Shown here one piece after another: positions 6,221 through 34,994 of a DNA stretch of 64,000 bases. Below the pieces are notes generated by a model. It did no database searches. It was not told the DNA's origin and was given only the letters and a program-made list of their open reading frames with translations. The translations under genes and the position numbers were made by a program. Position 1 is the stretch's first letter; every line of letters starts with the position of its first letter. This stretch comes from Candidatus Enterousia onthequi (GTDB lineage Bacteria > Pseudomonadota > Alphaproteobacteria > Rs-D84), in assembly GCA_018064365.1 (NCBI GenBank), contig JAGHVJ010000004.1, forward strand, positions 8,686-72,685, read 5' to 3'.

Positions 6221-6250
6221 AAAAAACGCAATCGATTTTGATTGCGTTTT
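6221..6250 (-). terminator. rho-independent terminator of the valS-thioesterase transcript
   Basis: Stem cgcaatc / gattgcg, with an A-run on the plus strand (a T-run on the minus strand). Confidence 0.65.
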
Positions 6251-6258
6251 ATTATTTT

Positions 6259-11487: not shown

Positions 11488-11522
11488 TAAAAAGCCCTGA
11501 ATTTAATCAGGGCTGTTTTTTA
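11488..11522. terminator. hairpin terminator after the efflux operon
   Basis: Stem agccctga / tcagggct, flanked by A- and T-runs. Confidence 0.6.
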
Positions 11523-14579: not shown

Positions 14580-14584
14580 TTTGA

Positions 14585-18089: not shown

Positions 18090-19142
18090 TTATTTTGTTA
18101 CTGTGTCGGCGATGTTTTTGGCAGCGTTGTTTTCTACCAAAGATTTTTGTGCCATTTTTTCCAGTCTTGTCGGATTTTCAAATAATTCCGTCAATGTGTT
18201 TTCCAACCATTTTACCGTGAATTTAGATTGCTCTATCGCAAATCCGCCACCCAATTTTGCAAATGCCGCCGCATTGGCCGCTTGGTCTGGATTTATATTC
18301 AATGGAACCAAAATTGCCGGACGACCAATTGTCTCTAATTCTATGACGGTACTGGCGCCACTGCGACCGATGACCAAATCAGCGTCAACTATTGCACCCG
18401 CCATGTCACGAATAAAAGACAATACATTTGCGTGGATTTTATGTTCTGCATAAAAACGTTGCAATTTTTCAACATTTTCTGGACGTGTTTGGTGCGTGAC
18501 GAAAATCTTTTTATTTTTCATATTCGCAACCGCCAACGGCACAATTTCATCCAAAATTTGCGCTCCCAATGAACCACCCGTCACCAGCAAATGAGATTTG
18601 TTTGGTATTTTTGTTCCTGCGGCAGTCAAGAAATCTGCACGCACCGGCAATCCTGTGTACACAATATTGGTTTTCGTTTTTGGCATACCGTTGACCGTTG
18701 GAAAACTGGTCATCAATGTTTTAACCCAGCGCATAGCAAATTTATTTGCACGACCGATGGCTGCATTTTGTTCGTGTAAAAATGTCGGTATGCCCCATAC
18801 GTGCGCAGCAAACACCACCGGAACAGACGCATATCCACCAAACGCCACAACACGTGATGGACGTGAAAACACAAATCGCAATATCAAGCCAAATGCCGAT
18901 ATACCAATTTTAAACAACGCGTATATTTGTTTCATTTTACTTTTTGCGCCAACCCCAGACGCCCAAACATGAGCAATACGCGCACCGTGTGGCGCAGAAT
19001 CGCGAACCATTTTGTCCGTTCGTCCATCACAAGAAATTGTTATTTTATGTCCACGCGACGCCAATTCCGATGCCACAGCCATAGCAGGGAAAACATGTCC
19101 ACCGGTTCCACCTGTTGCAATCCATATTTTCATATTATTCAC
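18090..19142 (-). CDS. murG: UDP-N-acetylglucosamine--N-acetylmuramyl-(pentapeptide) pyrophosphoryl-undecaprenol GlcNAc transferase
   Basis: IWIATGGTGGHVFPAMAVASEL plus a GT28 C-terminal domain. Positioned after ftsW. Confidence 0.93.
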   Translation of the reverse strand: MNNMKIWIATGGTGGHVFPAMAVASELASRGHKITISCDGRTDKMVRDSAPHGARIAHVWASGVGAKSKMKQIYALFKIGISAFGLILRFVFSRPSRVVAFGGYASVPVVFAAHVWGIPTFLHEQNAAIGRANKFAMRWVKTLMTSFPTVNGMPKTKTNIVYTGLPVRADFLTAAGTKIPNKSHLLVTGGSLGAQILDEIVPLAVANMKNKKIFVTHQTRPENVEKLQRFYAEHKIHANVLSFIRDMAGAIVDADLVIGRSGASTVIELETIGRPAILVPLNINPDQAANAAAFAKLGGGFAIEQSKFTVKWLENTLTELFENPTRLEKMAQKSLVENNAAKNIADTVTK

Positions 19143-19157
19143 CTTTGTTTTATTTTT

Positions 19158-20321
19158 TTATTTCCATTTATCTTCACGTATCAATGCCAATGTCATTCCG
19201 AACAATAGACAAAATCCCAAAAACGAACTGCCCCCGAATGATATAAATGGCAAAGTCATTCCTTTTGGTGGCATTACGTGTAATGTCGTTGCCAAATTCA
19301 AACATATCTGAACGGAAAACAATGCTGTTGTTCCCGTAATTACATACAGCACAAATTTATCGCGCGCAGATGCAGCAGACTGCATTAGACGTTTTATCAC
19401 CATAATAAATAAAACCAACAACAAACACCCAGCCAATGCACCAAAATCTTCGACCAATGCCGCATACACAAAATCATTTTCTGCCATCGGCAGGTTTTCG
19501 GCGGCAAAAGCCTCGTCCCCCATGCCAAACAAACCACCTTGGCGAATTGCGTTCACAGCAAAACCAACCTGGGACAATGGGTCTAATGGCTGAAAGAAAT
19601 CCATTATACGTTCGTGAACATGGTGCCATAAGAAAAATGCCAATGTTCCACCACCAACCAAAATTCCACCCAATATTGCCACAATTCTTTTCGGCAATCC
19701 GGCCACAAACAACATTATCCCCAGCACCAAGAAATACAACATTGATGTCCCGACATCGGGCTGTTTAAACATTATTCCCAATGTCAAACAAAACACAAAT
19801 ATATACGGCCACCAAGACATCCAATTAAATTTCCACGCTTCTCGATTCAAGAATATATTGTCACCGTATTTTTCTTTCATACGCGCCAAAAACCATGCGG
19901 TAATTACAACAAATCCTGGTTTCATAATATCAGACGGCATCAACTTTAATCCACCCAGCACGACCCATCGTGCAGAACCATTTACAAGTTGCGGATGAAT
20001 AAATGTCATTATCAATAACGGCAAACACACAATTATATTTAACCATGCGATATTCAAAACCCATTTTTTGTTAAACATACTGGTTATAAACAATGTGCCC
20101 AAACCAACGATATAAAAAGGAAACATTTTTACAAAAAAGTAATACCATGGTAATGCGCCATGCACACGGATAGAATTTGCACTGCCAGTTGATATTGCAG
20201 CAATCATACCAACAAAAATCATTATCCCAACATATAACAACAGCCATCTGTCTGTTCCGAAATACCAATCGGTCAATTTGCTGTCGTCTGTTCTGCGTGC
20301 AACTTCATTTATAACCGCCAT
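19158..20321 (-). CDS. ftsW: FtsW/RodA (SEDS) family peptidoglycan polymerase, probably FtsW by context
   Basis: 387 aa polytopic protein. The C-terminal motif PPKGMTLPFISFGGSS is diagnostic of SEDS proteins. Confidence 0.88.
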   Translation of the reverse strand: MAVINEVARRTDDSKLTDWYFGTDRWLLLYVGIMIFVGMIAAISTGSANSIRVHGALPWYYFFVKMFPFYIVGLGTLFITSMFNKKWVLNIAWLNIIVCLPLLIMTFIHPQLVNGSARWVVLGGLKLMPSDIMKPGFVVITAWFLARMKEKYGDNIFLNREAWKFNWMSWWPYIFVFCLTLGIMFKQPDVGTSMLYFLVLGIMLFVAGLPKRIVAILGGILVGGGTLAFFLWHHVHERIMDFFQPLDPLSQVGFAVNAIRQGGLFGMGDEAFAAENLPMAENDFVYAALVEDFGALAGCLLLVLFIMVIKRLMQSAASARDKFVLYVITGTTALFSVQICLNLATTLHVMPPKGMTLPFISFGGSSFLGFCLLFGMTLALIREDKWK

Positions 20322-20347
20322 TTTTATCCGTCCCTGTGATTAAAAAT

Positions 20348-21481
20348 TTATGCAAATTTTAACAAAATCAATGCCAATCCTGAAAACAGGATAGACACTA
20401 TAAAAAACCTATCTACGATTTTTGTTTCTGGCCAACCCAATTCTTCAAAGTGATGGTGTAATGGCGCGCGCAAGAATATACGACGGCCTGTGCCAGATAT
20501 TTTACGAGTGATTTTGAAAAACATTGTTTGCAAAAATGAAGATAGCAATATCAAAACCATCATACCCGCGGCGATTCCCATAATGATTTCTGATTTCAAC
20601 AGCATTGCAACCGTTCCCATAAATCCACCCAATGCAAGTGAACCAACATCACCCATGAAAATACTCGCAGGTTTCGTATTATACCATAAAAATCCCAATA
20701 CTGCGCCCGCCATTGCGCCCAATGGAGCGTACAAAGCATTGGCATCTGGCAAGAACACAACACTGTCCATAAAACCGATTCTGGTTGCGCCATACAATGC
20801 GACAACCAATACTATCAAAACAGGCAAATATAATTTTGATAACATACCATCTAATCCGTCTGTGATATTGGTTGCGTTTGCAGAACCACAGATAACAAAA
20901 TAACCAAATATGTAATATAAAAATCCTAATGTTATTGGCATACCAAATGCATTTCCTAAAACCCAAGAATTTAATGGCAATAAAATCGAAGAACCAATGG
21001 TGATTGACAATTCTGGGACATATGGTGGCATCGTTTTATTTATCAAATACACCAATATTGCAACAAATACAGCCTCGGCCAACAATCTGAATGATGGCGA
21101 TAATCCATTAGACGCTTTTTTTGATTGAGATGACACCTTTTTATAATCATCTGCAAAACCCAACGCACCAAACATTACCAAAGACATCAAAGCAATCCAA
21201 CCTGCTGTATTTGCCATTGGCATAAACAATACAGATGACACAATTACCGAAAACAAAATTAAAATTCCGCCCATGGTTGGTGTTCCAGCCTTGGCACGGT
21301 GAGATTCTGGGACATTTTCACTGATGGGTTGGCCTTTTTTTTGCCAATTATGCATTAACTTTATAAATCCACGTCCGAATAAAAACATTATCAAAAAAGC
21401 GCATGCAAACGCCGCCGCAAATTGCGTCCAACCACTTGCAAAAGAATAAAAACCATTTGATAAAAAGTAATCTGCCAGCAT
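20348..21481 (-). CDS. mraY: phospho-N-acetylmuramoyl-pentapeptide transferase
   Basis: GTPTMGGILIL, NATNITDGLDG, FMGDVGSLALGG and APLHHHFE motifs. Confidence 0.95.
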   Translation of the reverse strand: MLADYFLSNGFYSFASGWTQFAAAFACAFLIMFLFGRGFIKLMHNWQKKGQPISENVPESHRAKAGTPTMGGILILFSVIVSSVLFMPMANTAGWIALMSLVMFGALGFADDYKKVSSQSKKASNGLSPSFRLLAEAVFVAILVYLINKTMPPYVPELSITIGSSILLPLNSWVLGNAFGMPITLGFLYYIFGYFVICGSANATNITDGLDGMLSKLYLPVLIVLVVALYGATRIGFMDSVVFLPDANALYAPLGAMAGAVLGFLWYNTKPASIFMGDVGSLALGGFMGTVAMLLKSEIIMGIAAGMMVLILLSSFLQTMFFKITRKISGTGRRIFLRAPLHHHFEELGWPETKIVDRFFIVSILFSGLALILLKFA

Positions 21482-21551
21482 AATTTTTCTCCATTGTTAT
21501 ACTGACATTTTACCACAAAATAACGGCAATACAAATTGAATTAGATAAAAA

Positions 21552-23627
21552 TTAGAACACTCCGCCAACTGTCGGTGCAGATTGTGTTATGGTTTCGCCA
21601 TCGACATGTATCACAACAGGTTCGGTCGCCACAGGGACATTTGGTCCTTGGTTTGCCTTGAAAGCCTCGGTTATAATTACGCCGTTGGGGTCGCGGGTTG
21701 CAGCAACACCGTTTGACCGATTCACACGCACAAAATGCAATCCGTCTGGCACTGAAAAAGGTTGATTTTTCTGGTTTGCCAATGCCGGTGTCATAAAATC
21801 AGAAAACACATGCGCAGCGGTATAAGACCCTGTCCCCTTGCCCAATGGACGTGGCGTATCATAACCCAAATACACGCCCGCAATTAAATTTTTAGAAAAC
21901 CCGATAAACCACGCATCTTTGACATCATTGGTTGTGCCGGTTTTCCCTGCGATTGTGTGGCCAGGAACCATCGCCTGGCGACCTGTACCGCGTTCAACCG
22001 CGCCCTGTAATATCGACACCAATTGATATAAACTTTGTGGGTCAGATAATGCCGGCCCCATATCATCGTCGGCGGGTGGCAACATATCGTCAGACCATTT
22101 TTCTATTTTGGTATCGCCACCGTAAATTGTGCGTCCATAACGGTCTTGGATATAATCGACATATTTTGGTCTGATTACATGACCGCCATTTACAAACGCC
22201 GAATAACCTGCAACCAGATTTTGCAATGTTGTTTCGCCCGACCCCAGCGCCATCGATAAATTCATATCATGCATATCGTCTGGATAAACACCAAACCGCT
22301 TTGCGACATCGATTGCATCACGCACGCCGATTTGTTCCACCAAACGGACTGTTGGGACATTACGCGATGTTTCCAACGCCAACCGCAATGGCACATCGCC
22401 CAAGAATTTTTTATCATTGTTTTCAGGTTTCCATTCTGTGTATGCGTCTTTCCAACCAACGATTGGCGCGTCCAGTAAAATCGCCTGGGGCGACATACCC
22501 TTTTCCAGCGCAGCCAAATACACGAACGGTTTAATCGTACTGCCAATTTGGCGCATGGCCTGGGTTGCGCGATTAAAAGAACTATCGCCGAAACTGCGTC
22601 CGCCAGACATCGCCAACACACGGCCCGTGTATGGATTCATAACGATAATTGCACCTTGGAGTTTTTCATCACCGCCCCGCCCCGTATTATACGCGTCCAA
22701 TGTTTTATTCAGTGCGTTGGATGCGGCACGTTGCAATTCTGGAACAATTGTTGTCTTGATATACAGCCCATTATTGTATAAATCTTCGCGGCCAATACTG
22801 TCCAGTAATTGACGGCGAACTTCTTCGGCGAAATATTGGAAAGCATCTTCCATTTGGGCAGTAAAGCCACTGTTGATATTTAATTCCTGGGCGGCAGCCT
22901 CATCTGCCTGGGCCTGGGTTATATAGCCCTCGTCCACCATACGGCGCAAAACATAATTACGGCGTTTAACCGCGGCATCACGATTATTCGGAGCCTTGGG
23001 CAAAGATGCCAAAAATGCACATTCTGCCAATGTTAAATCTTGAACCGGTTTATTGAAATACATCAAAGCCGCAGACCCAACACCATACGCGCGCGCGCCC
23101 AGGAAAATCTGGTTCAAATATAATGTCATAATGTGTTTTTTAGAAAACGACCGTTCCAAACGCAGTGCCAATATAGCCTCTTTGACCTTGCGCGAAATGG
23201 TGCGGTCAGATGTCAGGAAAAAGTTCTTGGCAACCTGTTGCGTAATTGTTGACGCACCAGAAAATTTCGCATTAAACCCAAGTGCACGCATAACATTATT
23301 CGTTGCCGCACGCAAAATGCCCTGGGTATCGATACCAGGATGTGTCCAGAAATTCTGGTCTTCGGCCGCAATAAAAGCATTTATCAGTTGCGGTGGCATA
23401 TCATCAAAATCGATAAAGACGCGACGTTCAGCTGCATATTCTATCAACAAAGAACCATCCGCAGCATACAGGCGTGTTGCAACCGGCGGTGCATATGTTG
23501 CCAATTTTTTATAATCAGGCAAATCATGTCCATAAATAAAAATCAACGCAGCCAAAGCCGCAATTCCGGCAGTAATGCACCAAAATATAACATTTAAAAA
23601 AATCTTTAAAATTTTTTTGAATCGCAT
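21552..23627 (-). CDS. mrcA: class A penicillin-binding protein (PBP1A-type transglycosylase/transpeptidase)
   Basis: AAEDQNFWTHPGID and GASTITQQVAKN (GT51 domain), plus SGGRSF..STIKP and KTGTTND (transpeptidase). The start is set at MRFKKILKIF (23627); the longer track ORF adds an implausible leader. Confidence 0.92.
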   Translation of the reverse strand: MRFKKILKIFLNVIFWCITAGIAALAALIFIYGHDLPDYKKLATYAPPVATRLYAADGSLLIEYAAERRVFIDFDDMPPQLINAFIAAEDQNFWTHPGIDTQGILRAATNNVMRALGFNAKFSGASTITQQVAKNFFLTSDRTISRKVKEAILALRLERSFSKKHIMTLYLNQIFLGARAYGVGSAALMYFNKPVQDLTLAECAFLASLPKAPNNRDAAVKRRNYVLRRMVDEGYITQAQADEAAAQELNINSGFTAQMEDAFQYFAEEVRRQLLDSIGREDLYNNGLYIKTTIVPELQRAASNALNKTLDAYNTGRGGDEKLQGAIIVMNPYTGRVLAMSGGRSFGDSSFNRATQAMRQIGSTIKPFVYLAALEKGMSPQAILLDAPIVGWKDAYTEWKPENNDKKFLGDVPLRLALETSRNVPTVRLVEQIGVRDAIDVAKRFGVYPDDMHDMNLSMALGSGETTLQNLVAGYSAFVNGGHVIRPKYVDYIQDRYGRTIYGGDTKIEKWSDDMLPPADDDMGPALSDPQSLYQLVSILQGAVERGTGRQAMVPGHTIAGKTGTTNDVKDAWFIGFSKNLIAGVYLGYDTPRPLGKGTGSYTAAHVFSDFMTPALANQKNQPFSVPDGLHFVRVNRSNGVAATRDPNGVIITEAFKANQGPNVPVATEPVVIHVDGETITQSAPTVGGVF

Positions 23628-23717
23628 GAGTTTATTATACGACAAGATTTTGTCTTTTGCAATTTTTTGTAATAAAAAATTCCAACACAGCCAAACAAAA
23701 ACGCACACGCGTTTTGT

Positions 23718-25063: not shown

Positions 25064-25175
25064 GTCATCCCGCAGGAGTGCGGGATCCAGTTTTGCGTAT
25101 CGCAAAACTTGTGTTATTCGGCTTTATTACACAGGTCGGCTTCGCCGACTGGATCCCGCGCGTCCGCGGGATGAC
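25064..25175 (+). repeat. GC-rich hairpin-built MITE-like element, copy A
   Basis: The left end gtcatcccgcaggagtgcgggatccag and the right end ctggatcccgcgcgtccgcgggatgac are inverted repeats of each other, and each is itself a hairpin. Internal hairpins are ttttgcg-tatc-gcaaaa and gtcggc-ttc-gccgac. Confidence 0.85.
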
Positions 25176-25230: not shown

Positions 25231-25548
25231 TTATTCAGTGGCATAACCATTTGCAATCAAAAAATCTGGATATAAATCTTTCCAATCTGGATTATTTTCA
25301 AGAATCAGTTTTATTTTCCAGTTTCTGTTCCATTCTTTTAATTGTCGTTCACGTTTTACCATACAATCCAAACTTTCCTGATATTCGTAATACACTAATT
25401 TATTACAGTGATATTTTGCAGTAAATGATTTTGGATATATTTTATTTTTGTGTTCCCATACCCGGACTATCAGATTAGATGTAGAACCAATATATAAAGT
25501 TCCCATACGTTTTGACGCCATAATATAAACATAACCACCAGATTTCAT
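25231..25548 (-). CDS. GIY-YIG (URI-domain, YhbQ/COG2827-like) nuclease family protein
   Basis: 105 aa. GYVYIMASKRMGTLYIGSTSNLIVRVWEHKN...KLVYYEYQESLDCMVKRERQLKEWNRNWKIKLI carries the GIY...YIG...R...E motifs. Confidence 0.88.
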   Translation of the reverse strand: MKSGGYVYIMASKRMGTLYIGSTSNLIVRVWEHKNKIYPKSFTAKYHCNKLVYYEYQESLDCMVKRERQLKEWNRNWKIKLILENNPDWKDLYPDFLIANGYATE

Positions 25549-25606: not shown

Positions 25607-25728
25607 GTCATCCCGCAGGAGTGCGGGATCCAGTTTTGCGTATCGCAAAACTTGTGTTATTTGGCTTTATTACGCAAGTTGCCCCCACAATGGGGGGGCA
25701 ACTGGATACCGGCCTCCGCCGGTATGAC
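25607..25728 (+). repeat. GC-rich hairpin-built MITE-like element, copy B
   Basis: Same orientation as copy A. 25601-25679 matches 25058-25136 at 76 of 79 positions, with the first 61 identical (manual alignment). The right half has different sequence but the same hairpin layout: gttgccccc/gggggcaac and ataccggc/gccggtat, ending atgac. Confidence 0.85.
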
Positions 25729-25743: not shown

Positions 25744-28700
25744 TTATTCTTCGCTGATGTCGACACTGATTATGTCGCCGAAACTGCCGACCATTTGGCC
25801 ACCGACATAACAATGGATTTTCGAACCAATGCTGTCCATCCATTCTTGTTGTGCCTCAGTAAAGTCAGAACGGTTTTTAGCCTTCATAATTTGTGCAGTT
25901 GTGATACCGCCAACCGTTCCCAGAACCGCACCCCCAGCAAGATCAACCGTTGCACGTCCTAAACCTTTATTCCAGACATTGCCACCACTACCTGCAGCAG
26001 CAAGTTCTTTATAATTATCAGAATTTTTCATGTTCTTACATGCTTCTTCAGCTTGCTTAGCTTCTGTTGCGATTGCGCCGGCGACTGTGGCATTTGTGTC
26101 TTTCTTGAGCGAATCAACTGTCATTGTTTTTACTTGCTTAAAGGCATCATTGTTCCAATTATAATCTGTTGTCGTTACAGTCGATGACAACATATTAAAT
26201 GTACGTTGTAATTTTTCTATAGAGTCCCTTAAAGCATCAATTTCTTTTGTCACCTTGTCTGTGTCTGTGTCGTCTCTAACTTGGCCGACTCTTAGTGCAC
26301 TAGAAAAGACACCCAACGCTTCTTTCTGACACTGGTCAATTTGGATATCATACGACTGTCGCGTGTTTTCGTTGTCTTTATCTTGTTTTGCTGTACTTGT
26401 TTTCAACAAACCACCCAGACTGGTTTTTGTTTGCAACAAATCCATTGTGGCAACACCCGCAGCGGCACTCAATATACTGATGCCCGCGACGCCCCATTCT
26501 TGTCCTTTCTTTAATTTGCCATTTGCATCTGTTCTGGTTTTATCAGCCGCAACAGCTTCAGAGATTGTGTCCAATAAATATTTAGCATTAGCTCCATCTC
26601 CTTCTTTTTTAGAGGCCAACCAAGAACCGCATGTAAATGGATCACCAACCGCAAAATATGCATTTTCTATATCTTTACCTTGCATTGCATTCTGGATATA
26701 TCTGTCATCAGATTGGATTGTGACCTTGACCCGGCAGAACGAATTGTATAAATCGTTACTGGCGACCGACCCATCAAGCCCCAAACCATTTGTTGCATAA
26801 TTAGAATCCGGTCTGGTTTTATTCTTTAACTTTGCCCAAACAAATGCAGGGTCTGGATTCGCACCGGTATTTTGCGCCAAGCAAACATTTTGTTCGTGTG
26901 TCAATTTGGCGTTATATTTCGCCTGGGCCTCTAATTCTATATCAGCCAAGACCGTTTGGAACAATGATGTTGCCGCCGAATTCGATAATTGAACATCTTT
27001 TTCAATCATATACGGTGTTTGACAATCAATGTTACCACCATCTTCGTATCCGCAAACATCATGATCTCCGCCAGAGCAAGTACAGTGTTTCTTACCATTA
27101 GCATCTGTGTACTGAACACCCTCTTTGGTAATATTATATCCATAATTTTGGCCAGAATTACGCCATGCGTTGCTGACAGTTGTGATGCCGGTGCCCCATG
27201 TGCCGGTTACATCTGCATCGCCGTCCAAAATTCCCATTTTGGCAATTGCCAAACTTTCCGAACATGCGTCCGCAGATTTCACAGTTGACATACATAAACC
27301 TTGGACAATTGTGTAATCCAATACACCGCCAACCTTGTTCATAGATTTATTAAATGATTCACTTTCTGTTGAATATGTTGCAACACGGATATCGTTACGA
27401 TTACGATAGCAATTCTGATAATCTTTGCCGCACATAGATTTTACACAGTTTGATACAACGTTGCTGCACTGTTTTTTCATTTGTTCAATTGCCACATCGT
27501 TGTATGCCGTGGATAATTCTGCATTTAATGCCGCAACAATGGTCGAATCACCGTTGCCGGATTTATATTGTGGGAACAATGTCGCAAATGTGTCACTGGT
27601 CCCGCCCATATTAAATGTGTATGTATCGTCGCCCTGCATAGCAGCCATAAAACGACAATTCGCATCGGTATTTACAATCGCCGCGCAACCGTTTTCAATG
27701 TCAGTGTACACTGTTTCATTATTTATAGATTTTTGACCAGAATTTTTGAACGCACGTGTATAACATGCCGCACCCGAACCGCCACCACATGAACGCACCG
27801 CGCAAGATTTAAATGTTTCAATACATTTATTGCGCGCAGTTGTATCAAATTGTTTTGCCAATTCGTTGACGCGTGTATTCAAAATTGTTTTGCGGGATGC
27901 ATACGCCTCGCCAAAAATGTCTTCGCGCAGGTCTTCGTCTTGCAAATCTGCCTTGCTTGGTTTTTTGCCATCATTAAATGTCATAAAGCAATATTGGTTA
28001 GAGCCAATTGTGTCGGTGCATGCCGCACGGAAGAATTTACGGACATCTGTTGCCATTTGTTTGCCAGTTTTCACATTGCCGTTGGCATCTGTATAATTTC
28101 CAGCCAATAAATTGTCATCGGCACTGCCCACAGATTTCGCAGCATTGACCACAGACCAATCAACATCTTCGACACAACTGTATGGGTTTTTCGCACATGC
28201 ATTTGAAAAACATGTGTCAACAACCTTGTAGCAGGTGTTCACAGCATTTGCAGCCGCCAAAGCCGCACCGTCGGCAACCCATTGTTCAATATCGCCACCG
28301 GCATAAGAACCCAAACGTTTGTTTGCAGGTTTTGTTGTCACCTTTTCACCAAACAATTGTTGGAAACCCTCTTTTTGGCAACGAGACAATGTAGAATCGC
28401 ACATTGCTGCCTGTTTTTTAAATTCTGTATCAGATGTGCATAATTCAAAGTCTTCGCCACAAATATTATCTTTGTTCAAGCATCTTTTATATTTTTTCAC
28501 ACAATCTTCGGTCGATAATTTGTTGCGTGTCCCAGCACCAATAATATCAATTCCCATGACCGAACCATCGGTTGGGTATGTATAGCGAGCAACCTCGGTA
28601 TCGTTGGTATCGGCAACGTAATTTTGAACCTGGGATAAAGCATCCAGATTACTGGTTCCGAACAAACTGTTGATTGCGGCAGGAGAGCATTGGTAAAGTG

Positions 28701-29046
28701 TGCTGTAACATTCGCCCATATGGCCATGGAACAAAACATTTGTTGTACATTCTTCAAATTCAGAACCGCATGCCGTATCTGATTTCATACATTCACGATA
28801 ATCTTCGACACATTCTGCATCGGAAATCAAACCAGTTCCTGTCGATGAAGTTGTCGTACTGGACACAGCGGATGACGCACCACCAGATTTCACAATATTA
28901 GACAACGACGGCAGACGACGCGACGCAGCAGCAGCCACAACCCCCGTCACACCAACGCGTCCAGATGACGCCACAACCGCCGCGGTTGCCGCACCACACA
29001 CGCACATTATCGCAATAAAACTGACCGAATTTTTGAAAAGATGCAT
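25744..29046 (-). CDS. very large secreted/membrane-anchored cysteine-rich protein of unknown family
   Basis: The track ORF runs to 29052 (MEMH...). The ATG at 29046 has better AGGAG spacing. There is a signal peptide, a Ser/Thr linker, a duplicated 6-Cys module, about 40 Cys in total, and two Gly-rich hydrophobic segments plus a coiled-coil-like stretch near the C-terminus. Confidence 0.85.
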   Translation of the reverse strand: MHLFKNSVSFIAIMCVCGAATAAVVASSGRVGVTGVVAAAASRRLPSLSNIVKSGGASSAVSSTTTSSTGTGLISDAECVEDYRECMKSDTACGSEFEECTTNVLFHGHMGECYSTLYQCSPAAINSLFGTSNLDALSQVQNYVADTNDTEVARYTYPTDGSVMGIDIIGAGTRNKLSTEDCVKKYKRCLNKDNICGEDFELCTSDTEFKKQAAMCDSTLSRCQKEGFQQLFGEKVTTKPANKRLGSYAGGDIEQWVADGAALAAANAVNTCYKVVDTCFSNACAKNPYSCVEDVDWSVVNAAKSVGSADDNLLAGNYTDANGNVKTGKQMATDVRKFFRAACTDTIGSNQYCFMTFNDGKKPSKADLQDEDLREDIFGEAYASRKTILNTRVNELAKQFDTTARNKCIETFKSCAVRSCGGGSGAACYTRAFKNSGQKSINNETVYTDIENGCAAIVNTDANCRFMAAMQGDDTYTFNMGGTSDTFATLFPQYKSGNGDSTIVAALNAELSTAYNDVAIEQMKKQCSNVVSNCVKSMCGKDYQNCYRNRNDIRVATYSTESESFNKSMNKVGGVLDYTIVQGLCMSTVKSADACSESLAIAKMGILDGDADVTGTWGTGITTVSNAWRNSGQNYGYNITKEGVQYTDANGKKHCTCSGGDHDVCGYEDGGNIDCQTPYMIEKDVQLSNSAATSLFQTVLADIELEAQAKYNAKLTHEQNVCLAQNTGANPDPAFVWAKLKNKTRPDSNYATNGLGLDGSVASNDLYNSFCRVKVTIQSDDRYIQNAMQGKDIENAYFAVGDPFTCGSWLASKKEGDGANAKYLLDTISEAVAADKTRTDANGKLKKGQEWGVAGISILSAAAGVATMDLLQTKTSLGGLLKTSTAKQDKDNENTRQSYDIQIDQCQKEALGVFSSALRVGQVRDDTDTDKVTKEIDALRDSIEKLQRTFNMLSSTVTTTDYNWNNDAFKQVKTMTVDSLKKDTNATVAGAIATEAKQAEEACKNMKNSDNYKELAAAGSGGNVWNKGLGRATVDLAGGAVLGTVGGITTAQIMKAKNRSDFTEAQQEWMDSIGSKIHCYVGGQMVGSFGDIISVDISEE

Positions 29047-29129
29047 CTCCATTCTCCTATACTTTCAATTTATTTTATCATAATTATCGGAAAAATAAAA
29101 GTGCTTTTTACAAAAATACAACGATAATC

Positions 29130-30086
29130 TTAGGCAGATTCTAAAATTTCTTTCAATTCCATCATATCGTCTGGCAAAGGCGATTTGAAAGTCATCTGTT
29201 CGCCAGTAATTGGGTGTTTTAACGATAAATACGACGCGTGCAACATTTGACCGTTATGAGTTTTCAAAAAATCCAATAATTCAGGGTCTTTGACACTGCC
29301 CAGACGGGTTGAACCACGGCCATATATCGGGTCGCACAAAACAGGAAAACCATGTGCAGATAAATGAACCCTGATTTGATGAGTTCGACCAGTCAATAAA
29401 GTACAACGAAAATGAGACACACCAACACCGTTCCACACATCAACAACATTGACATGGGTTTCTGCGGGTTTGCCACCGGATTTTACCATTGTCATTTTCT
29501 GTCTGTTTCGTGAAGAACGCGCAATATTTCCGATTATGGTTGCACCCTCCCAATTTGGGACACCCCAAACAAACGCGTCATATTTGCGTGTCAAATCATG
29601 TGTTGAAAATGTTTTAACCAATTCACGATAGGCAGCATCTGTTTTTGCAAAAATCATAACGCCAGACGTGTCTTTATCCAGACGATGCACCACCCCAGGC
29701 CGCACATCACCACCCAATCCAGATAATTTTGTGTAGCACAACAAGTTTTGAACCAATGTTCCTGTTTTATTCCCAGCCGACGGATACATCACAACACCGC
29801 GTGGTTTATTTATTACGATAATATCATCGTCTTGGTATAAAATATCCAAATCAAAATCAGTCGACATATTATTTGACGCAATCATGGTATTTGATTCTGG
29901 TTCTGGGACAATAACAAAATATTGTTCGCCCAAGCGCACACGGTCTGAAAATTTTACCGACACACCACCACGCGACACAGAAAATTTTTGTATTTCACTG
30001 CGTGAAAATTCAGGCATTTTTCCACATAAAAATTTATCTAACCTAATACCGACATCTGCATCGGCAACTGTAAATTCCATTTGCAT
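29130..30086 (-). CDS. rluD: RluA-family 23S rRNA pseudouridine synthase (RluD-like, with S4 domain)
   Basis: IRLDKFL (S4 domain) ... HRLDKDTSGVMIFAKTDAAY ... TGRTHQIRVHL. The start is set at MQMEFTV (30086), 2 nt after the upstream stop. Confidence 0.85.
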   Translation of the reverse strand: MQMEFTVADADVGIRLDKFLCGKMPEFSRSEIQKFSVSRGGVSVKFSDRVRLGEQYFVIVPEPESNTMIASNNMSTDFDLDILYQDDDIIVINKPRGVVMYPSAGNKTGTLVQNLLCYTKLSGLGGDVRPGVVHRLDKDTSGVMIFAKTDAAYRELVKTFSTHDLTRKYDAFVWGVPNWEGATIIGNIARSSRNRQKMTMVKSGGKPAETHVNVVDVWNGVGVSHFRCTLLTGRTHQIRVHLSAHGFPVLCDPIYGRGSTRLGSVKDPELLDFLKTHNGQMLHASYLSLKHPITGEQMTFKSPLPDDMMELKEILESA

Positions 30087-30088
30087 AT

Positions 30089-30556
30089 TTATTTCCCATA
30101 TTTTGACCAATTTGGACCAACAGTACATTTCGATAAATCAATATTAAAATCGTAATCGCCTGTGGCCGGACACGTCAATAAACCAGTGGTTTCTGACTGG
30201 GGCGCATCGGCGGTTGCATTATGATACGCAAATTGCACTGTTTTTGGATTGGCAACACATATCAAGCGCAAATTTCCAACAACCTCGCCAGACGGGGACA
30301 CCCAAATGCGAACACTGTCTGCGGCACCATAGCAAGGAAACGCATCCAAATAATACAAAACCAAACCATTTTTTACCAATGAACGCGAACTGCCTGTGAT
30401 TTTACCACTGTATTGCGATAAAGGCAACCCGGTAACACCAGACCAATCAACCGTTGTTGAAAAAAGACTTACCCGTGGGGCCGGCATCTGCGGTGTGTCA
30501 TCTGCAAATGCGTTGACACAGCAAAAAACAGACAAAATTGCGATTATTTTTTTCAT
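30089..30556 (-). CDS. secreted hypothetical protein (155 aa)
   Basis: Signal peptide MKKIIAILSVFCCVNAFA. The mature part has 4 Cys. Overlaps the upstream gene by 4 nt (ATGA). No family recognised. Confidence 0.65.
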   Translation of the reverse strand: MKKIIAILSVFCCVNAFADDTPQMPAPRVSLFSTTVDWSGVTGLPLSQYSGKITGSSRSLVKNGLVLYYLDAFPCYGAADSVRIWVSPSGEVVGNLRLICVANPKTVQFAYHNATADAPQSETTGLLTCPATGDYDFNIDLSKCTVGPNWSKYGK

Positions 30557-31065
30557 TTTTCGAAATCCTCTAATTTTACAACAATCTTTTTGACCCCCAT
30601 TGACGGTGCACGCAAAGTATAAACAAAACCTGCACGCGCCCCCGCATCCAGTAATGTGACCGGTGGATTAAATGTTTCCGGTGCATTTACAGAATTGCCT
30701 TTTTCATCATATGTCATAATTATCAGATTTGGCGCACCGTAAATTCCGTCTGATTTATTTTCAATTATACCAGACACGATAAAATGATTTATGCCGTTGC
30801 CATCGGGTGCCAATTCTGTTTTTACGATATTTGCCACCAATGGCGAATTGTTATCTGATTTAGCATGATAATGTACCACCACCACAATCGAAAATATTAT
30901 TGCAGATAACAATGCGCACAATGCCGCCACAAAAACAAAAAATTGATTCTTTTTATTGGATGTTTTTACCATCCATGTATGACCACATATTGCACAACAT
31001 ACCGGATTGGCCGGAATTTTATTCAAACTGTATTCTGTTTTACAAAAATCACATTTTATTTTCAT
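30553..31065 (-). CDS. zinc-ribbon (MJ0042-type) membrane protein with a DUF3426-like periplasmic domain
   Basis: MKIKCDFCKTEYSLNKIP...CCAICGHTWMV (CxxC...CxxC), followed by one transmembrane helix and a beta-rich C-terminal domain. Confidence 0.7.
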   Translation of the reverse strand: MKIKCDFCKTEYSLNKIPANPVCCAICGHTWMVKTSNKKNQFFVFVAALCALLSAIIFSIVVVVHYHAKSDNNSPLVANIVKTELAPDGNGINHFIVSGIIENKSDGIYGAPNLIIMTYDEKGNSVNAPETFNPPVTLLDAGARAGFVYTLRAPSMGVKKIVVKLEDFEK

Positions 31066-31088
31066 AACATTTCCATTTATATCATAAA

Positions 31089-32408
31089 TTATTGCAATTT
31101 CAACAAACTATATTTCGCACGCACTGTATTCGCAATTTCATTTAATGCGTTGGTATAATCTGTGACTGTGGCATTTGCATTTGATGCCACCGCACGAAAA
31201 CGACGCCCAGATACGGTTGATTGGTCAAATTCTAAATCACCCAAATAACTGACCATACGATTCAAATCCCCCAGATACAAATCTGAAAAATTCGCAGTTC
31301 CATTTGCAACATTCCAATAATAATTCGGATTTGACGGAGATGTGATTTTTGATGTGACTGTTAAACGCGGTGTCACAGACCCCGCATATCCAACCGTTAT
31401 CTGCAATGCATTTATACTGCCGTAACGCATTTTGACAGAACCATTGATAGTTAAAATCACAGGTCTGTTGTCTGAATTTGTAATCGATAATGTCGGCAAT
31501 GTTAAATCTGTCACATACAAATCATTTGTTGTGAACGATGAAAATTTCGCGGTGCCAGATAAAGACAATCGGCCTGATATTTCCATATTTCTGGAATCAG
31601 CGGTCAAAGAGCCAGATACAGTCGCACTTTTAGTATAAAAAGCACCGTCAATCGTTGTTCTATTATCAAAAATCAATTCACGCGTATCAACACGACCGAG
31701 TTTTAAAAACTCATCAAACGAACCATTTATAAAGTTTATATTTTTTGTGTTCAAAATATCTTGTCCACCAAGATTTAATGACGAACGCATTGTCGCATCG
31801 TCTGGGTCATCTGTGGGGACACGCCACAGATACAATGCATTATCTCGATTTACTGCGGTTGTGCCGACGATACCAGAATCTGATGCAGCAATTCCTAAAT
31901 CAGATACAGATGTGCGCCACGAACCGTTTGCGCCATATGCATGTTTCCCATCAACAAAGCCCACATTACCCCCAGCCATATTTAATATTTGACGCGTACG
32001 AAACGGTGTAATTTTATCAGAATCATATACAACAACCCCTTGTAATGTTGATTGCCCATCAAAATCACGAGATTTAATTATACGCAATTGGTATTTTACA
32101 TCTGGGTTATTTATAATACCGTCAGACAAACCGTATTTTTCTAAATCTGAAATATCAATTCGGGAAATATGACGACCATACGGTTTTAATAACATTTCAC
32201 GATTTTCTATGATATATCGTTCCAAAGCACCTTGGATATCTGTCATTTGTCGAGTAATTGCGATATTTTCACGTCGTTCTATGGCACTGCGTTGATATTT
32301 AAATACAAATGGAATTATCAACATAGCCAAAGCAACACTCAACAACAATTCAACCAGCATACTGCCACATTGTTGTTTTAATAAAGATTTCTTATCTATT
32401 GTTTTCAT
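31089..32408 (-). CDS. large prepilin-like protein, PilV/shufflon-N-like, paralogue 3 (439 aa)
   Basis: Class III signal ...KQQCG|SMLVELLLSVALAMLIIPFVF (Glu at +5). Also carries ALYLWRVPTDDPDDATMRSSLNLGGQDILNTKNI, and has a T/S/N-rich repetitive C-terminal half. Confidence 0.7.
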   Translation of the reverse strand: MKTIDKKSLLKQQCGSMLVELLLSVALAMLIIPFVFKYQRSAIERRENIAITRQMTDIQGALERYIIENREMLLKPYGRHISRIDISDLEKYGLSDGIINNPDVKYQLRIIKSRDFDGQSTLQGVVVYDSDKITPFRTRQILNMAGGNVGFVDGKHAYGANGSWRTSVSDLGIAASDSGIVGTTAVNRDNALYLWRVPTDDPDDATMRSSLNLGGQDILNTKNINFINGSFDEFLKLGRVDTRELIFDNRTTIDGAFYTKSATVSGSLTADSRNMEISGRLSLSGTAKFSSFTTNDLYVTDLTLPTLSITNSDNRPVILTINGSVKMRYGSINALQITVGYAGSVTPRLTVTSKITSPSNPNYYWNVANGTANFSDLYLGDLNRMVSYLGDLEFDQSTVSGRRFRAVASNANATVTDYTNALNEIANTVRAKYSLLKLQ

Positions 32409-33658
32409 TTATTTATACTTTTTTTGGTTTGCCAATCAGCAGACATAATCGCACTGAATTCTGATTTGTTTGGTGTTGTGGTTATTTTTGTTCGTCCCAA
32501 GTTTAATTGTGAAAATGTCGGCATTTGTGTTGATGGAAAAATCCACGAACCGATTTTTAACGGGGCTGTACGCGACAACAATAATTCGCCAGATACAGTC
32601 AAACCAAAATCACCATAAAAAACTAAATCTGTGGTTGTCACATACGGTGTATAAACAGTATTCGCAGATATTGCTGTAAATGCATTTACGGTACGCGTGC
32701 CAGATGATTTCAATTTAAATAAATTGCCAATTCTAACCGATTTATTTATTGTCGCACTGTCTGTAATTACAGTACCTGTATTACTGAAAGTCGAACCATT
32801 TAATGTATTTGCTGTAATATTACGAAATCCGCTGATATCACCCAGCGCACGAATTGTTTCAATATCTGCATCTGCGCCTTGGATATTTGCACCAGATGAA
32901 AAATACACGGAACCAGCCACCGCATCGTCTGATTCTAGAAATGTTGTATTAGCATTTTTACCAGAAACAGTTTTTGCATCCAATACACCAATATCCAGTA
33001 AATCTTTGCCGCCCATATTCAAATTACGCAACATCGCATTCAGATTATCAGATACAGATTCTTGCGAATCTTTATCTTTTGAATTTGTTTGTGTGTTATC
33101 TGACGATGCGCCACGATGTAAAAAATTATTTCTATCTTGTCCAGAAAAATTATGCGACACACGATAAACTAAATCGCCAGGTGTAAAATCTGGGGCTGCA
33201 GCCGCCCAAGTCGCACCATATGCAATTCCGTCGTCAGACACAATTGCAGCATCACCGCCAATTTGTCGTGCAATTTGATTTGTACGCACAGCCGAATCAG
33301 ACACACGAAAAACCAAATATACATCCGTAATATTTGTTCCGCGAAATTGACGTCTATCAATAAATGCCGCAGATACCAACGGAGAAATTTCTTTGACTTC
33401 TTCGGATGTTAATTGTATTTCTGTAGCATTATCCCAATCTTCTTGATGAACACGAATATAGTTTAACGCGCCATCTTGTATATCAACGATTTTTTGTGCA
33501 ACAGATACATTTTCAATATCGTTGTATGTTCGTTGAATTTGTTTATACATAAACGGCGCAGCCACAGCAATTATTGATATGGCTAAAATAACCTCTATCA
33601 GTGATGTTCCACGCGATTCATTATTAAAAATTTTTGTTTTATATACAGTCACTGCCAC
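32405..33658 (-). CDS. large prepilin-like protein, PilV/shufflon-N-like, paralogue 2 (417 aa)
   Basis: ...NESRG|TSLIEVILAISIIAVAAPFMY (Glu at +5), VAQKIVDIQDGALNYI, and NLNAMLRNLNMGGKDLLDIGVLDA. Confidence 0.7.
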   Translation of the reverse strand: MAVTVYKTKIFNNESRGTSLIEVILAISIIAVAAPFMYKQIQRTYNDIENVSVAQKIVDIQDGALNYIRVHQEDWDNATEIQLTSEEVKEISPLVSAAFIDRRQFRGTNITDVYLVFRVSDSAVRTNQIARQIGGDAAIVSDDGIAYGATWAAAAPDFTPGDLVYRVSHNFSGQDRNNFLHRGASSDNTQTNSKDKDSQESVSDNLNAMLRNLNMGGKDLLDIGVLDAKTVSGKNANTTFLESDDAVAGSVYFSSGANIQGADADIETIRALGDISGFRNITANTLNGSTFSNTGTVITDSATINKSVRIGNLFKLKSSGTRTVNAFTAISANTVYTPYVTTTDLVFYGDFGLTVSGELLLSRTAPLKIGSWIFPSTQMPTFSQLNLGRTKITTTPNKSEFSAIMSADWQTKKSINK

Positions 33659-34994
33659 CTGCCATTAAACATTGTTTTGCATTGATTCTTTGTTCCAGAC
33701 GCGACCAAAACAAATATTCACATAATACATGTTGCGCCACAGACGATGCATTATAATTTTCGCCCATACTGGTTATCACAGATTGACAAGTCAATGTTTC
33801 ATCACTGTCGCGTTTTGGATATTTCAAAATTGCAAAATCATTATTATTTACCCCAGCCACACGGACATCTGGTAAAACAGTTGTACTGGCAGGACGAATA
33901 TCAACAATAACCGCACCAGTATCACCTGCATCCAAAGCCTTGGATGTTTGATCGCGCAATGTGATATGCGATGCAACAACATTTACCGCAGAAATTCCAC
34001 TGGACGCACTGGTTGTTACGGTAGCGTCTTCAACATACGCATCTTGGCCACTGGAAACATTTAAATAAGACCCAACCTCTAATCGTTCTGTAGTCAGGGC
34101 AATATATTCTGTTTCCATATTGCCACGCACATCCCATGTCGTCGGCCCTGTAAACCCGGTACGACCCGCCGTCATATCAAAAGAATAAACCGACGCTGTA
34201 TCCGATTCGAAATTACCCGTCGAGCCATATTCTGAAATTGTTTTACTAAATACATTCTTTGCCTTTAAAGCACCACGTGTCAATGCCAATGCCGAACCAC
34301 CAGATTTAGATTGAAAAATACTTTTATCTGCGGTCAATACGGTTATTTTATTTTTTGAACCACGCTCTCCTTCGTTGCCAGAAATTCCCAAAGTATCAAA
34401 AGTCGCACGTTCAGATACAATATTATGCCCAATTACATGGTTTACATTTTCTACGGAAAAATTATTCATATCCAAATCCGCCAAGAACGCAGAATTTGTA
34501 AGATTCGATTCGTTACGACGCACAACCTCTTGATACAATGTATTCAATGGGATACCAACCATCAAACCCGTAGTAGTGCGTTCTGCATAAAAACCGATTC
34601 TGCGAACCATTTCTGCGACTTGAACAGTTGTCAATTTACCGCCATCAATCATTAAACGTCCACTAACACCTGTTTCATTTTTATCGACAATTAAATATAT
34701 ATCTTGGCCAAATGCAGTTTGTGGTATATATCCCAACGGCAAACCATACGGTTCCAACATATCACCAAAATCATTTCCACGAATCGTTGTCTGGCCATAA
34801 GAAAGAGTATCTACATTTTCACGAATAAAAATGCGTGCCGCGGTTTGTGCAGTATCTATTTGATGCACAGAAGAATACATTTTGGCATCCACGTCATTTA
34901 CAATCAAACGACGCGTTAAAACAGGCATAAAAACAAACAGCAAAGAAATTGCCAATAATGCCTGCAACAAAAAATTTCCACGTTGATTAAACAA
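33639..34994 (-). CDS. large prepilin-like protein, paralogue 1 (451 aa; Gln at +5; TTG start)
   Basis: MFNQRG|NFLLQALLAISLLFVFMPVL, followed later by SAFLADLDMNNFSVENVNHV. The C-terminus has 4 Cys. Confidence 0.6.
   Translation of the reverse strand: MFNQRGNFLLQALLAISLLFVFMPVLTRRLIVNDVDAKMYSSVHQIDTAQTAARIFIRENVDTLSYGQTTIRGNDFGDMLEPYGLPLGYIPQTAFGQDIYLIVDKNETGVSGRLMIDGGKLTTVQVAEMVRRIGFYAERTTTGLMVGIPLNTLYQEVVRRNESNLTNSAFLADLDMNNFSVENVNHVIGHNIVSERATFDTLGISGNEGERGSKNKITVLTADKSIFQSKSGGSALALTRGALKAKNVFSKTISEYGSTGNFESDTASVYSFDMTAGRTGFTGPTTWDVRGNMETEYIALTTERLEVGSYLNVSSGQDAYVEDATVTTSASSGISAVNVVASHITLRDQTSKALDAGDTGAVIVDIRPASTTVLPDVRVAGVNNNDFAILKYPKRDSDETLTCQSVITSMGENYNASSVAQHVLCEYLFWSRLEQRINAKQCLMAGGSDCI

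Follow-up and report, generated by a model that had tools for sequence, protein, structure and literature searches.

An undescribed cysteine-rich protein family of the order Rs-D84 joins a conserved scaffold to a strain-variable C-terminal third

What kind of protein carries about 40 cysteine (Cys) residues in a bacterium with a genome below 1 Mb, and where in the cell does it work? The question was raised by a minus-strand gene at 25744..29046 of a 64,000-nucleotide stretch of Candidatus Enterousia onthequi DNA (Alphaproteobacteria, Rs-D84; assembly GCA_018064365.1, contig JAGHVJ010000004.1, positions 8,686 to 72,685), which is called the window below. A first-pass annotation made from the letters alone had described the product as an orphan, secreted protein of 1100 residues. 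We compared the gene with its relatives and found that it is real, intact and under selection, and that its product, here called the Cys-rich protein, represents an undescribed family with a conserved N-terminal scaffold and a C-terminal third in which alleles are replaced between close strains. Its role and topology are hypotheses. At even chances, in our estimate, it is an exported envelope or surface contact protein in which the conserved scaffold carries a variable, membrane-engaging C-terminal module.

The gene appeared in the open reading frame (ORF) list and its translation as a single uninterrupted ORF of 1102 codons at the coordinates annotated at first pass (25744..29052); it lies on the minus strand, which that annotation had not stated. 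The true start is probably M3 (ATG at 29046), because the sequence AGGAG precedes this ATG and the orthologues begin with MH(F/L)FKN, commonly MHFFKN. The database copy of the protein (P0001) also has 1100 amino acids. Residue numbers below follow the 1102-residue ORF and not the 1100-residue product.

25744..29046, minus strand: coding sequence of the Cys-rich protein, 1100 amino acids from the likely start M3; stop codon at 25744-25746, longest ORF reaching ATG 29052
29054-29058, minus strand: Shine-Dalgarno-like AGGAG, read directly from the sequence, 7 nucleotides before the second in-frame ATG (29046)

The AGGAG lies inside a 77-nucleotide AT-rich spacer between rluD and the gene. Rfam, promoter and terminator scans around the gene yielded nothing useful. 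Orthologues were compared in an order-wide alignment of 81 sequences and at 80 GTDB-species loci. The orthologue was intact and in a single frame at all 80 loci examined (962-1297 amino acids), with a length of about 1030-1300 amino acids except in L007 (962) and L069, where it runs off its contig. Two near strains, L090 and L091, were found by exact-protein lookup, and the nonsynonymous (dN) and synonymous (dS) substitution rates were computed between them and the window. The overall dN/dS of the gene was 0.22-0.40. The intact orthologues and this ratio rule out a pseudogene or a non-coding frame, and the decaying copies in relatives that the first-pass annotation had considered were not found at these 80 loci. 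An apparent fragment in L085 was a 100-N scaffold gap (L085 9870-9970) within an intact orthologue. P0271 (92 amino acids) was thus rejected as a stand-alone protein, being a gene-calling artefact of this gap, where a spurious antisense gene was also emitted; this case calls for caution when "small" family members are counted.

The protein is not the orphan that it had been taken for. At least 750 homologues, all unnamed or "hypothetical", were obtained in the first database search; where a source was named, it was a metagenome-assembled genome of Alphaproteobacteria. An exhaustive phmmer scan of 1.84 billion representatives gave 211 clusters at 50% identity. When one genome per GTDB species was scanned, relatives were present in 252 species, which belonged to Ca. 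Enterousia, uncultured Rickettsiales and Alphaproteobacteria and came from the guts of humans, chickens, horses, ruminants and other hosts. One relative's record is a closed chromosome of 958,618 bp. The family is real but narrow, and it is restricted to gut and rumen bacteria of the order Rs-D84. Members of this order have genomes of less than 1 Mb with no respiratory chain, incomplete glycolysis and few transporters and are probably partner-dependent; they are fermentative anaerobes that lack ordinary nutrient transporters and are proposed to take metabolites from partners (PMC12306168).

The domain layout of the protein was as follows, with strand and coordinates in the window:

28969..29046, minus strand: Sec-type signal peptide, residues 3-28; hydropathy (Kyte-Doolittle 19-residue mean, KD19) up to 2.34, median 1.89 in the 81 orthologues
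28825..28968, minus strand: mature N-terminal stretch, predicted to be disordered, residues 29-76; predicted local distance difference test score (pLDDT) below 35
28648..28824, minus strand: 6-Cys module copy 1, residues 77-135; C81, C88, C95, C102, C115 and C122, spacing 7-7-7-13-7
28333..28518, minus strand: 6-Cys module copy 2, residues 179-240; C184, C191, C198, C205, C218 and C225
27133..28332, minus strand: Cys-stapled helical scaffold, residues 241-640; conserved, mostly helical in the model, all Cys invariant
26503..27132, minus strand: mixed alpha/beta domain, residues 641-850; pLDDT about 90 in the domain model, no PDB match
26398..26502, minus strand: glycine-zipper segment 1, residues 851-885; starts at W853 and ends ..LQ..GLGGLL, Gly 29%
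25972..26397, minus strand: hypervariable helical bundle, residues 886-1027; its helices reach a pLDDT of about 90, 81-330 amino acids long among the orthologues
25885..25971, minus strand: glycine-zipper segment 2, residues 1028-1056; GxxxGxxxG read in the alignment, followed by the basic patch KAKNR
25747..25884, minus strand: conserved C-terminal tail, residues 1057-1102; helix and three short strands, pLDDT 87-94

The AlphaFold2 model of the full chain (pLDDT 69.5) was helical from residue 78 to about 610, with the alpha/beta domain at 645-850, the bundle at 887-1021 and a tail of one helix plus strands. A second model of residues 641-1102 reached a pLDDT of 77.7, with about 90 in the alpha/beta domain. 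The stretch between the two Gly/Ala-rich segments, earlier described as polar and coiled-coil-like, was helical in both models. The tail carries the motif EWMDxIGSKIHCYVGGxxVGxFGD with the single Cys C1081.

Across the order, conservation was high from residue 77 to about 850, collapsed at 886-1025 and recovered in the tail, and the mean column conservation in the hypervariable bundle was 0.18. Against the near strains, residues 77-640 had a dN/dS of 0-0.05. The bundle (886-1027) differed from that of L091 with a dN of 0.75, whereas the neighbouring genes showed a dN of only 0.002-0.005 and a dS of 0.05-0.16; the bundle difference is a complete allele replacement. Over both strains, the dS of the neighbouring genes was 0.02-0.16 and their dN 0-0.018. 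The alpha/beta domain differed from that of L090 with a dN of 0.094, and a bin-wise map resolved independent mosaic hot spots at 626-690 (the loop with the dense Cys patch), 776-850 and 876-1050. The same pattern held among the 71 homologue pairs with a scaffold at least 95% identical, in which the median identity of the variable region was 0.41 and 77% of the pairs fell below 0.6. The flanking pilin-like genes were not variable (dN/dS 0.05-0.10). A search for silent donor copies of the variable region, covering the window and up to 10 kb to either side of the gene at about 90 loci, found none.

These data suggest that diversifying selection, together with recombination, acts on the C-terminal third. 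Because the allelic replacement takes place at the strain level, we consider with moderate confidence that this third is exposed to an outside agent, such as a partner or host surface, a phage or an antibody, which supports, for this part of the chain, the surface location suggested at first pass. The N-terminal scaffold would be tightly constrained or else shielded, by the periplasm or by an assembly that encloses it. Conserved flanks combined with a central or C-terminal segment that is recombined among close strains are a feature of Msp2/P44 of Anaplasma and SapA of Campylobacter fetus. The analogy with these proteins is functional only, as there is no homology, the fold class is another, and no donor pseudogene cassettes were found nearby.

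Is the whole chain exported? The hydrophobic N-terminus (FIAIMCVCGAATAAVVASS) has the properties of a Sec-type signal peptide, as first annotated, and the orthologues end it with an AxA-type site (..AFA/AT). A lipoprotein was ruled out, since the N-terminus contains no lipobox ([LVI][ASTVI][GAS]C), and C17 is kept in only 36% of the orthologues. A Tat substrate was also ruled out, because the RR motif comes after the hydrophobic core and not before it. The disordered stretch that follows (29-76) carries the motifs R-[VP]-[GS]-[VI] and [RS]-R-[LM]-P-[ST]-[LM], with R32 and R46 invariant and P48 conserved in at least 90%, and then the expected Ser/Thr-rich linker (53-76). In loose versions with wider residue sets than the consensus, the two motifs were found in 76 and 73 of the 81 orthologues, respectively, and they persisted as ARPS..SRMP in the 28%-identical homologues P0187 and P0205.

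The duplication of the 6-Cys module was confirmed: the two copies share the same Cys spacing and 37% identity over 57 ungapped residues, and hhalign matched their sub-alignments with a probability of 99.4% (E 5e-22). The six Cys of copy 1 were invariant in the 81 orthologues, and this copy formed a helix-loop-helix in the model (pLDDT 82-90). In the scaffold from 241 to 640, the pattern C-x6-C-x4-C-x6/7-C ... C-x9-C occurs three times (274-355, 410-466 and 529-597). Three further homologous repeats (256-375, 388-500 and 505-625) were rejected at an hhalign probability below 10%, and the three units are called a pattern rather than repeats because their similarity is not significant. The alpha/beta domain contains three conserved Cys (C724, C773 and C808), the C657-C667 loop and parts of the hot spots 626-690 and 776-850. 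The dense Cys patch noticed at first pass (HCTCSGGDHDVCGYEDGGNIDC) is present at residues 656-677, but only C657 and C667 in it are conserved, and it lies in a strain-variable loop.

The chain contains 42 Cys, 40 of them after the signal peptide, which agrees with the earlier count of about 40. Apart from C659 (17%), the 32 Cys from C81 to C667 were 100% invariant in the 81 orthologues. Among the others, C724 was conserved in 100%, C773, C808 and C1081 in 99%, C1005 in 90% and C908 in 84%. The number of Cys per region in the orthologues was as follows:

Residues 77-640: 30
Residues 641-700: 2 or 4
Residues 701-850: odd, almost always 3
Between the Gly-rich segments: 0, 2, 4, 6, 8 or 10 in 73 of 81
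Tail: 1, in all but one of the 81

The mature total ranged from 36 to 48 and was even in 71 of the 81 orthologues. Because the totals stay even while varying in this range, the Cys are probably paired in an oxidising compartment, and the even counts in the variable region argue that this region is not cytoplasmic either. With moderate confidence, judging from the sequences, the Cys form about 19-20 intramolecular disulfides, and the whole chain including the tail lies outside the cytoplasm. An inner-membrane hairpin of two transmembrane helices with a cytoplasmic loop was ruled out, since the Cys of the loop vary in number but stay even. The lone tail Cys (C1081) would most simply pair with the "spare" Cys N-terminal to Gly-rich segment 2, and such a pair would place the tail in the same compartment as the alpha/beta domain. 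The Sec-type signal, the invariant Cys and the even totals together support a disulfide-rich, extracytoplasmic protein.

The Cys might instead bind a metal (Zn, Fe or Fe-S), which would be attractive in a fermentative anaerobe in which a DsbB-quinone route is doubtful, and absolutely invariant Cys positions would be expected of metal ligands too. However, no CxxC or CxxCH-type motifs occur, and the Cys follow one another at i/i+7 along the predicted helices, in better agreement with helical hairpins stapled by disulfides than with metal sites. Totals that stay even while they vary, and Sec export in the unfolded state with no Tat motif, also speak against metal binding, which we regard as extremely unlikely. 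Exported, disulfide-stabilised Cys-rich envelope proteins of host-associated bacteria are represented by chlamydial OmcB/OmcA and by Helicobacter Hcp, whose Sel1 repeats staple helix pairs with disulfides. The Cys-rich protein differs from both in having no Chlam_OMP6 or Sel1 Pfam match, in its twin C-x6-C module, in its single chain of 1100 amino acids and in the hypervariable C-terminal module.

Does the protein resemble anything described? Searches of Pfam, NCBIfam, PHROGs and PDB sequences with the whole protein gave no credible match, only CpcG linker noise (E above 0.003), and in Pfam there was no match at E up to 1. A PDB profile search with a 57-sequence alignment found only coiled-coil-type matches with E values of 0.0026 or worse, and neither the alpha/beta domain nor the twin C-x6-C module had a PDB match. 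Foldseek searches with the full model (PDB and BFVD) and the C-terminal model (PDB) returned only generic helical bundles and long helical phage proteins; in the PDB nothing was found at E below 0.09, with TM-scores below 0.2, and the BFVD TM-scores were no better than 0.08. No match was obtained by tblastn against 50,697 phage records or in PHROGs. Profile searches of a large protein database with the C-terminal module (15 matches) and the 6-Cys module (3 matches) returned mostly contig-end fragments and no new architectures or names. NCBIfam contained no match to a C-terminal sorting domain of the PEP-CTERM, GlyGly-CTERM or LPXTG type; Gly-Gly, a hydrophobic stretch and KAKNR are present but, unlike in these signals, are followed by a conserved 45-residue domain. 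The earlier statement that the architecture belongs to no described family was thus upheld by the profile and structure searches. For the family as a whole, and likewise for its twin C-x6-C module and its alpha/beta domain, no relatives could be detected. An exported envelope protein with a conserved scaffold and a variable tip is itself a familiar kind of thing, and the newness is at the family level.

How might the variable module be attached to a membrane? Both Gly/Ala-rich segments (about 853-875 and 1036-1056) have 24-29% Gly, 16-20% Ala and GxxxG spacing, and segment 1 has a Trp (W853) in 74 of the 81 orthologues, with a basic patch, [KR]-x-[KR]-x, before it. When 26 C-terminal modules were compared with Pfam, the matches were all sub-threshold, namely Gly-zipper_Omp for two (best 2e-4), Rick_17kDa_Anti for one (3.5e-3) and Gly-zipper_YMGG for one (6e-3). 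The first-pass annotation had called the C-terminus a glycine-zipper membrane region. The glycine zipper is supported, but a membrane region is at most putative in view of the marginal hydropathy and of pLDDT values below 50.

A precedent is given by SlyB and YfgH, which are glycine-zipper hairpins of two transmembrane helices in the outer membrane (bioRxiv 10.64898/2025.12.22.696046). Like SlyB, YfgH and the Rickettsia 17-kDa antigen (PF05433, PF13488), the Cys-rich protein would be an exported envelope protein with Gly/Ala-rich GxxxG segments of about 20 residues, its two zippers could pair as a hairpin, and a few family members have the sub-threshold Pfam matches. In contrast to them, it has no lipobox, its zippers are 81-330 amino acids apart instead of being joined by a tight turn, and they are connected to a Cys-rich part of 850 residues and a conserved 45-residue tail. 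Membership in the SlyB/Gly-zipper_Omp class was not supported by the gathering score, a lipobox or adjacent GxxxG helices.

Segment 2 and the tail form a portable module, which also ends small secreted proteins with their own signal peptides (P0251, P0252 and P0259). In termite-gut metagenome sequences, short contigs encode genuine small secreted proteins of 142-147 amino acids (L086 577-1020, L088 72-500 and L089 75-503), in which about 50 residues separate the signal peptide from glycine zipper 2, and the conserved single-Cys tail comes last. In L076, a 306-residue paralogue (312-1232) comprises the alpha/beta domain and zipper 1 and aligns to residues 678-880, and the adjacent 910-residue, repeat-rich paralogue (1229-3961) ends in zipper 2 and the tail. 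Because the halves are split over two adjacent paralogues there, this arrangement suggests that the two C-terminal halves can associate in trans. L003 encodes an 882-residue secreted paralogue-like protein (4120-6768) with about 50 Cys and repeated "VSRV" N-terminal motifs, which is also found in L067, L078, L083 and L041. Its module C..C..MVCGEDYYKC resembles the 6-Cys module, and the lineage thus has more than one Cys-rich exported family.

Taken as an envelope or surface contact protein, the chain would work in the following way. The Sec-type signal exports it, and residues 77-640 form a helical scaffold with 30 invariant Cys, in which hardly any residue differs between strains. In the last third, which comprises the novel alpha/beta domain, a Gly-rich segment, the helical bundle, the second Gly-rich segment and the short tail, the two glycine zippers may come together at the foot of the variable bundle, where they would engage a membrane. 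In the sub-model that we prefer, a helical hairpin of the SlyB/YfgH type, placed in the outer membrane of the bacterium itself, would display the variable bundle, while the tail would fold back on the alpha/beta domain and be locked by one "spare" Cys on each side. The role would then be surface contact or recognition for a bacterium that must live attached to other cells.

Several points weigh against this proposal. The median KD19 of segments 1 and 2 in the 81 orthologues was 1.23 and 1.49, respectively, below the usual threshold of 1.6, and the hydropathy of segment 1 was no higher than that of the top window in the soluble part (1.27). AlphaFold gave both segments a pLDDT below 50 and modelled them largely as non-helical loops. 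The basic patch after segment 2 would equally fit an inner-membrane anchor with a cytoplasmic tail under the positive-inside rule. The hairpin sub-model places the alpha/beta domain in the periplasm, yet this domain has strain-variable loops, and no route across the outer membrane was identified. Furthermore, the odd Cys totals of 10 of the 81 orthologues do not fit strict pairing, and the oxidation of 40 Cys is unexplained in anaerobes without a respiratory chain.

The same C-terminal unit could instead be inserted into a foreign membrane, in the manner of alpha-pore-forming toxins or class I fusion proteins, so that the bacterium breaches or fuses with a partner cell. This idea overlaps with that of a contact protein and would suit a transporter-poor lineage proposed to draw metabolites from partners. 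It was suggested by a recurring, non-significant signal of the ClyA family of toxins in profile searches (YaxA E 0.13, XaxA 0.27-0.3) and structure searches (ClyA E 1.3), in which the AhlB pore was the top Foldseek match of the C-terminal model (E 0.094, TM-score 0.13-0.18; AhlB and SmhB range E 0.09-0.5). The basic patch before the conserved Trp and the low model confidence of the two segments, as would be expected if they refolded on a membrane, are also in line with it. The ClyA family shares a long helical bundle and Gly-rich hydrophobic segments with the Cys-rich protein, and its members were the best non-significant matches to residues of about 850-1075. However, none of these matches was significant, the TM-scores stayed below 0.2, and helical bundles match promiscuously. 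The match spans less than a quarter of the protein, and the hydrophobic element is located at the tip in the middle of the ClyA-type bundle, whereas the segments flank the bundle at both ends here. No protease site or trigger was demonstrated, and an ordinary glycine-zipper anchor would have the same composition. We treat the ClyA-family similarity as a lead only and consider an attack on foreign membranes very unlikely. A specific form of it, in which an insertion or fusion device with a locking tail attaches the bacterium to a host or partner cell and opens a conduit into it, with the strain-specific bundle setting the partner specificity and the 30-Cys scaffold serving as a rigid stalk, seems quite unlikely.

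The neighbourhood of the gene raises the question of whether the putative contact protein acts on its own or with pili. The following genes are located upstream of it:

29130-30128, minus strand: rluD, directly upstream and co-directional
30089-30556, minus strand: secreted 4-Cys protein of 155 amino acids (sec155), upstream block
30553-31065, minus strand: zinc-ribbon/transmembrane protein of 170 amino acids (zr170), upstream block
31089-32408, 32405-33658 and 33639-34994, minus strand: three prepilin-type proteins of 417-451 amino acids, in transcription order pil451, pil417 and pil439; the canonical prepilin N-termini among them are G/SMLVEL, G/TSLIEV and G/NFLLQ

The gene thus follows the pilin-like genes and rluD on one strand, as first annotated. 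The upstream block (29130..34994) is given here as genomic context only. Pil439 matched Shufflon_N (3.5e-5), and its residues 15-240 were 24-28% identical to PilV tip adhesins of the type IVb thin pili of IncI plasmids. The product of zr170 has an N-terminal CxxC-x16-CxxC zinc ribbon, one transmembrane helix and a periplasmic domain of about 95 amino acids, which is a ZitP-like architecture in miniature; its matches to MJ0042_CXXC (1.9e-3) and Zn_ribbon_4 (0.014) were sub-threshold. ZitP is a pilus-biogenesis and polarity factor of Alphaproteobacteria (PMC5182063). Across dnaX, the window also encodes an OmpA-type lipoprotein and a 151-residue PilS-like pilin (37130-37585; ELG/RSLIEILGVLAIGAV) whose C-terminus carries a Cys pair. 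A genome of less than 1 Mb thus encodes a type IVb-like pilin set.

On longest-ORF coordinates, rluD overlaps the end of the 155-residue gene by 40 nucleotides (30089-30128), and the pilin-like genes overlap by 4-20 nucleotides. Such overlaps point to a tightly packed putative operon that would include a housekeeping pseudouridine synthase. In gene calls of close relatives, rluD starts 14 codons later, after the preceding gene, and the rluD overlap is then gone.

About 65 of the 80 species loci, reaching down to 38% identity, keep the gene order pil451-pil417-pil439-zr170-sec155-rluD-Cys-rich gene, and so do 46 of the 52 metagenome loci that were located by way of the pilin genes. This same-strand block is an argument for a pilus partner, which may be either a non-pilin tip adhesin like PilY1/PilC or a pilus-delivered protein like TcpF/CofJ. 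The canonical prepilin N-termini, the PilV-like pil439, the PilS-like pilin nearby and the ZitP-like protein in the block all fit such a partner. In this version the short N-terminal motifs would be the docking signal, as TcpF and CofJ dock on a large minor pilin via a flexible N-terminal peptide, and the persistence of these disordered motifs even in the 28%-identical homologues would be accounted for.

However, the synteny may merely reflect low rearrangement in tiny genomes, because the housekeeping genes dnaX and rluD share the conserved block, and the Cys-rich gene has its own Shine-Dalgarno sequence and AT-rich spacer. The gene is also separable from the pilins. It lies away from them in about 15 species, usually still upstream of PBP1A-mraY-ftsW-murG, while L147, L156 and L165 keep the pilin block without it, lpxD/ileS following instead, and the 28%-identical homologues follow miaB-ybeY/lnt, without pilin genes in the vicinity. 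The 64-kb window contains no type IV assembly ATPase, platform, peptidase or secretin, and a genomic survey of Rs-D84 reported type IV pilus genes only for another lineage (PMC12306168).

Nor was any similarity to PilY1/PilC, TcpF or CofJ detected. PilY1/PilC (PF05567) are likewise exported and about 1100 amino acids long, but they contain a beta-propeller, whereas the model of the Cys-rich protein is mainly helical and gave no propeller-like Foldseek match; TcpF and CofJ are similar neither in sequence nor in fold. PilY1/PilC are encoded with minor pilin genes; the Cys-rich gene adjoins pilin-like genes in about 80% of the species but is separable from them, and rluD lies in between. R64 varies its tip adhesin, and the likeness to the R64-type PilV system consists of the PilV-like minor pilin in the block and a variable, specificity-like part. 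Here, in contrast, the pilins are conserved and the Cys-rich protein varies, by allelic exchange, with no shufflon or silent cassettes found. The conserved gene order lends weak support to the functional link with the pilin-like genes that had been suggested at first pass. We consider a pilus partner possible but doubtful, and it would overlap with the contact protein rather than exclude it.

On the other side of the gene, a minimal wall cluster, PBP1A-mraY-ftsW-murG, occupies 18090-23708 with no mur ligase genes between, and this block is conserved in relatives. The Cys-rich gene is located directly upstream of it in the window and at about 22 of the 80 loci, and it stays with the wall cluster when parted from the pilins (L003, L020, L048, L067 and L074). 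The protein might accordingly be a disulfide-stiffened periplasmic scaffold that spaces or tethers the membranes and the wall and is tied to the PBP1A-MraY-FtsW-MurG genes. A Sec signal with no recognisable signal for outer-membrane export, the extreme conservation of the scaffold and glycine zippers like those of periplasm-facing outer-membrane lipoproteins would all suit this function. However, most orthologues and the distant homologues do not adjoin wall genes, and no peptidoglycan-binding domain was detected in Pfam or NCBIfam. Moreover, wholesale replacement of C-terminal alleles is unexpected for a hidden structural protein. We think a periplasmic scaffold unlikely and retain the envelope or surface contact protein as the preferred explanation.

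Downstream of the gene, the element resembling a miniature inverted-repeat transposable element (MITE) that had been noticed after the stop codon is present, together with a second copy beyond a GIY-YIG ORF:

25607..25728, minus strand: MITE-like element copy A, 122 nucleotides, after the stop codon; 28-nucleotide inverted arms at 25701-25728 and 25607-25634
25064..25175, minus strand: MITE-like element copy B, on the far side of the GIY-YIG ORF; 28-nucleotide repeat, 86% complementary, 56 nucleotides apart

The two copies share an exact 29-mer. This slot is variable: in the window it holds a gene for a 105-residue GIY-YIG nuclease (25231-25548) between the two MITE-like copies, in L090 (13419-13787) and L091 (13500-13868) a DUF559 endonuclease-like gene, and in L001 (13249-13877) neither of them. 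The slot resembles a hot spot at which small, selfish nuclease genes insert. Elsewhere in the window, 49505-53666 encodes a type IV secretion coupling protein of the VirD4/TraG type (756 amino acids), a 419-residue lipoprotein of unknown family and an LpoB-like lipoprotein. One minus-strand run at 11520-16989 encodes an AcrB-type RND pump, a TolC-like outer-membrane factor, a MarR-type regulator and, between pump and factor, a 215-residue unknown protein; this run confirms that the envelope is diderm, with an outer membrane.

Rs-D84 bacteria, including Ca. Enterousia, are widespread in human, livestock and bird guts and are predicted to subsist on partner cells. The Cys-rich gene takes up about 0.35% of a genome of less than 1 Mb, and its product ranks among the best candidates for the molecule that serves this lineage in contact or recognition, as well as being a natural strain-typing marker. 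How an anaerobe without a respiratory chain oxidises about 40 Cys is a biochemical puzzle in its own right. Since nothing in the PDB matches the invariant twin C-x6-C helical hairpins or the alpha/beta domain, structural work on them would deal with new folds or modules. If the zipper hairpin indeed spans the outer membrane with an inserted display domain, it would extend the SlyB-type class of helical outer-membrane proteins. The Cys-rich protein is probably central to the biology of this widespread, uncharacterised gut lineage.

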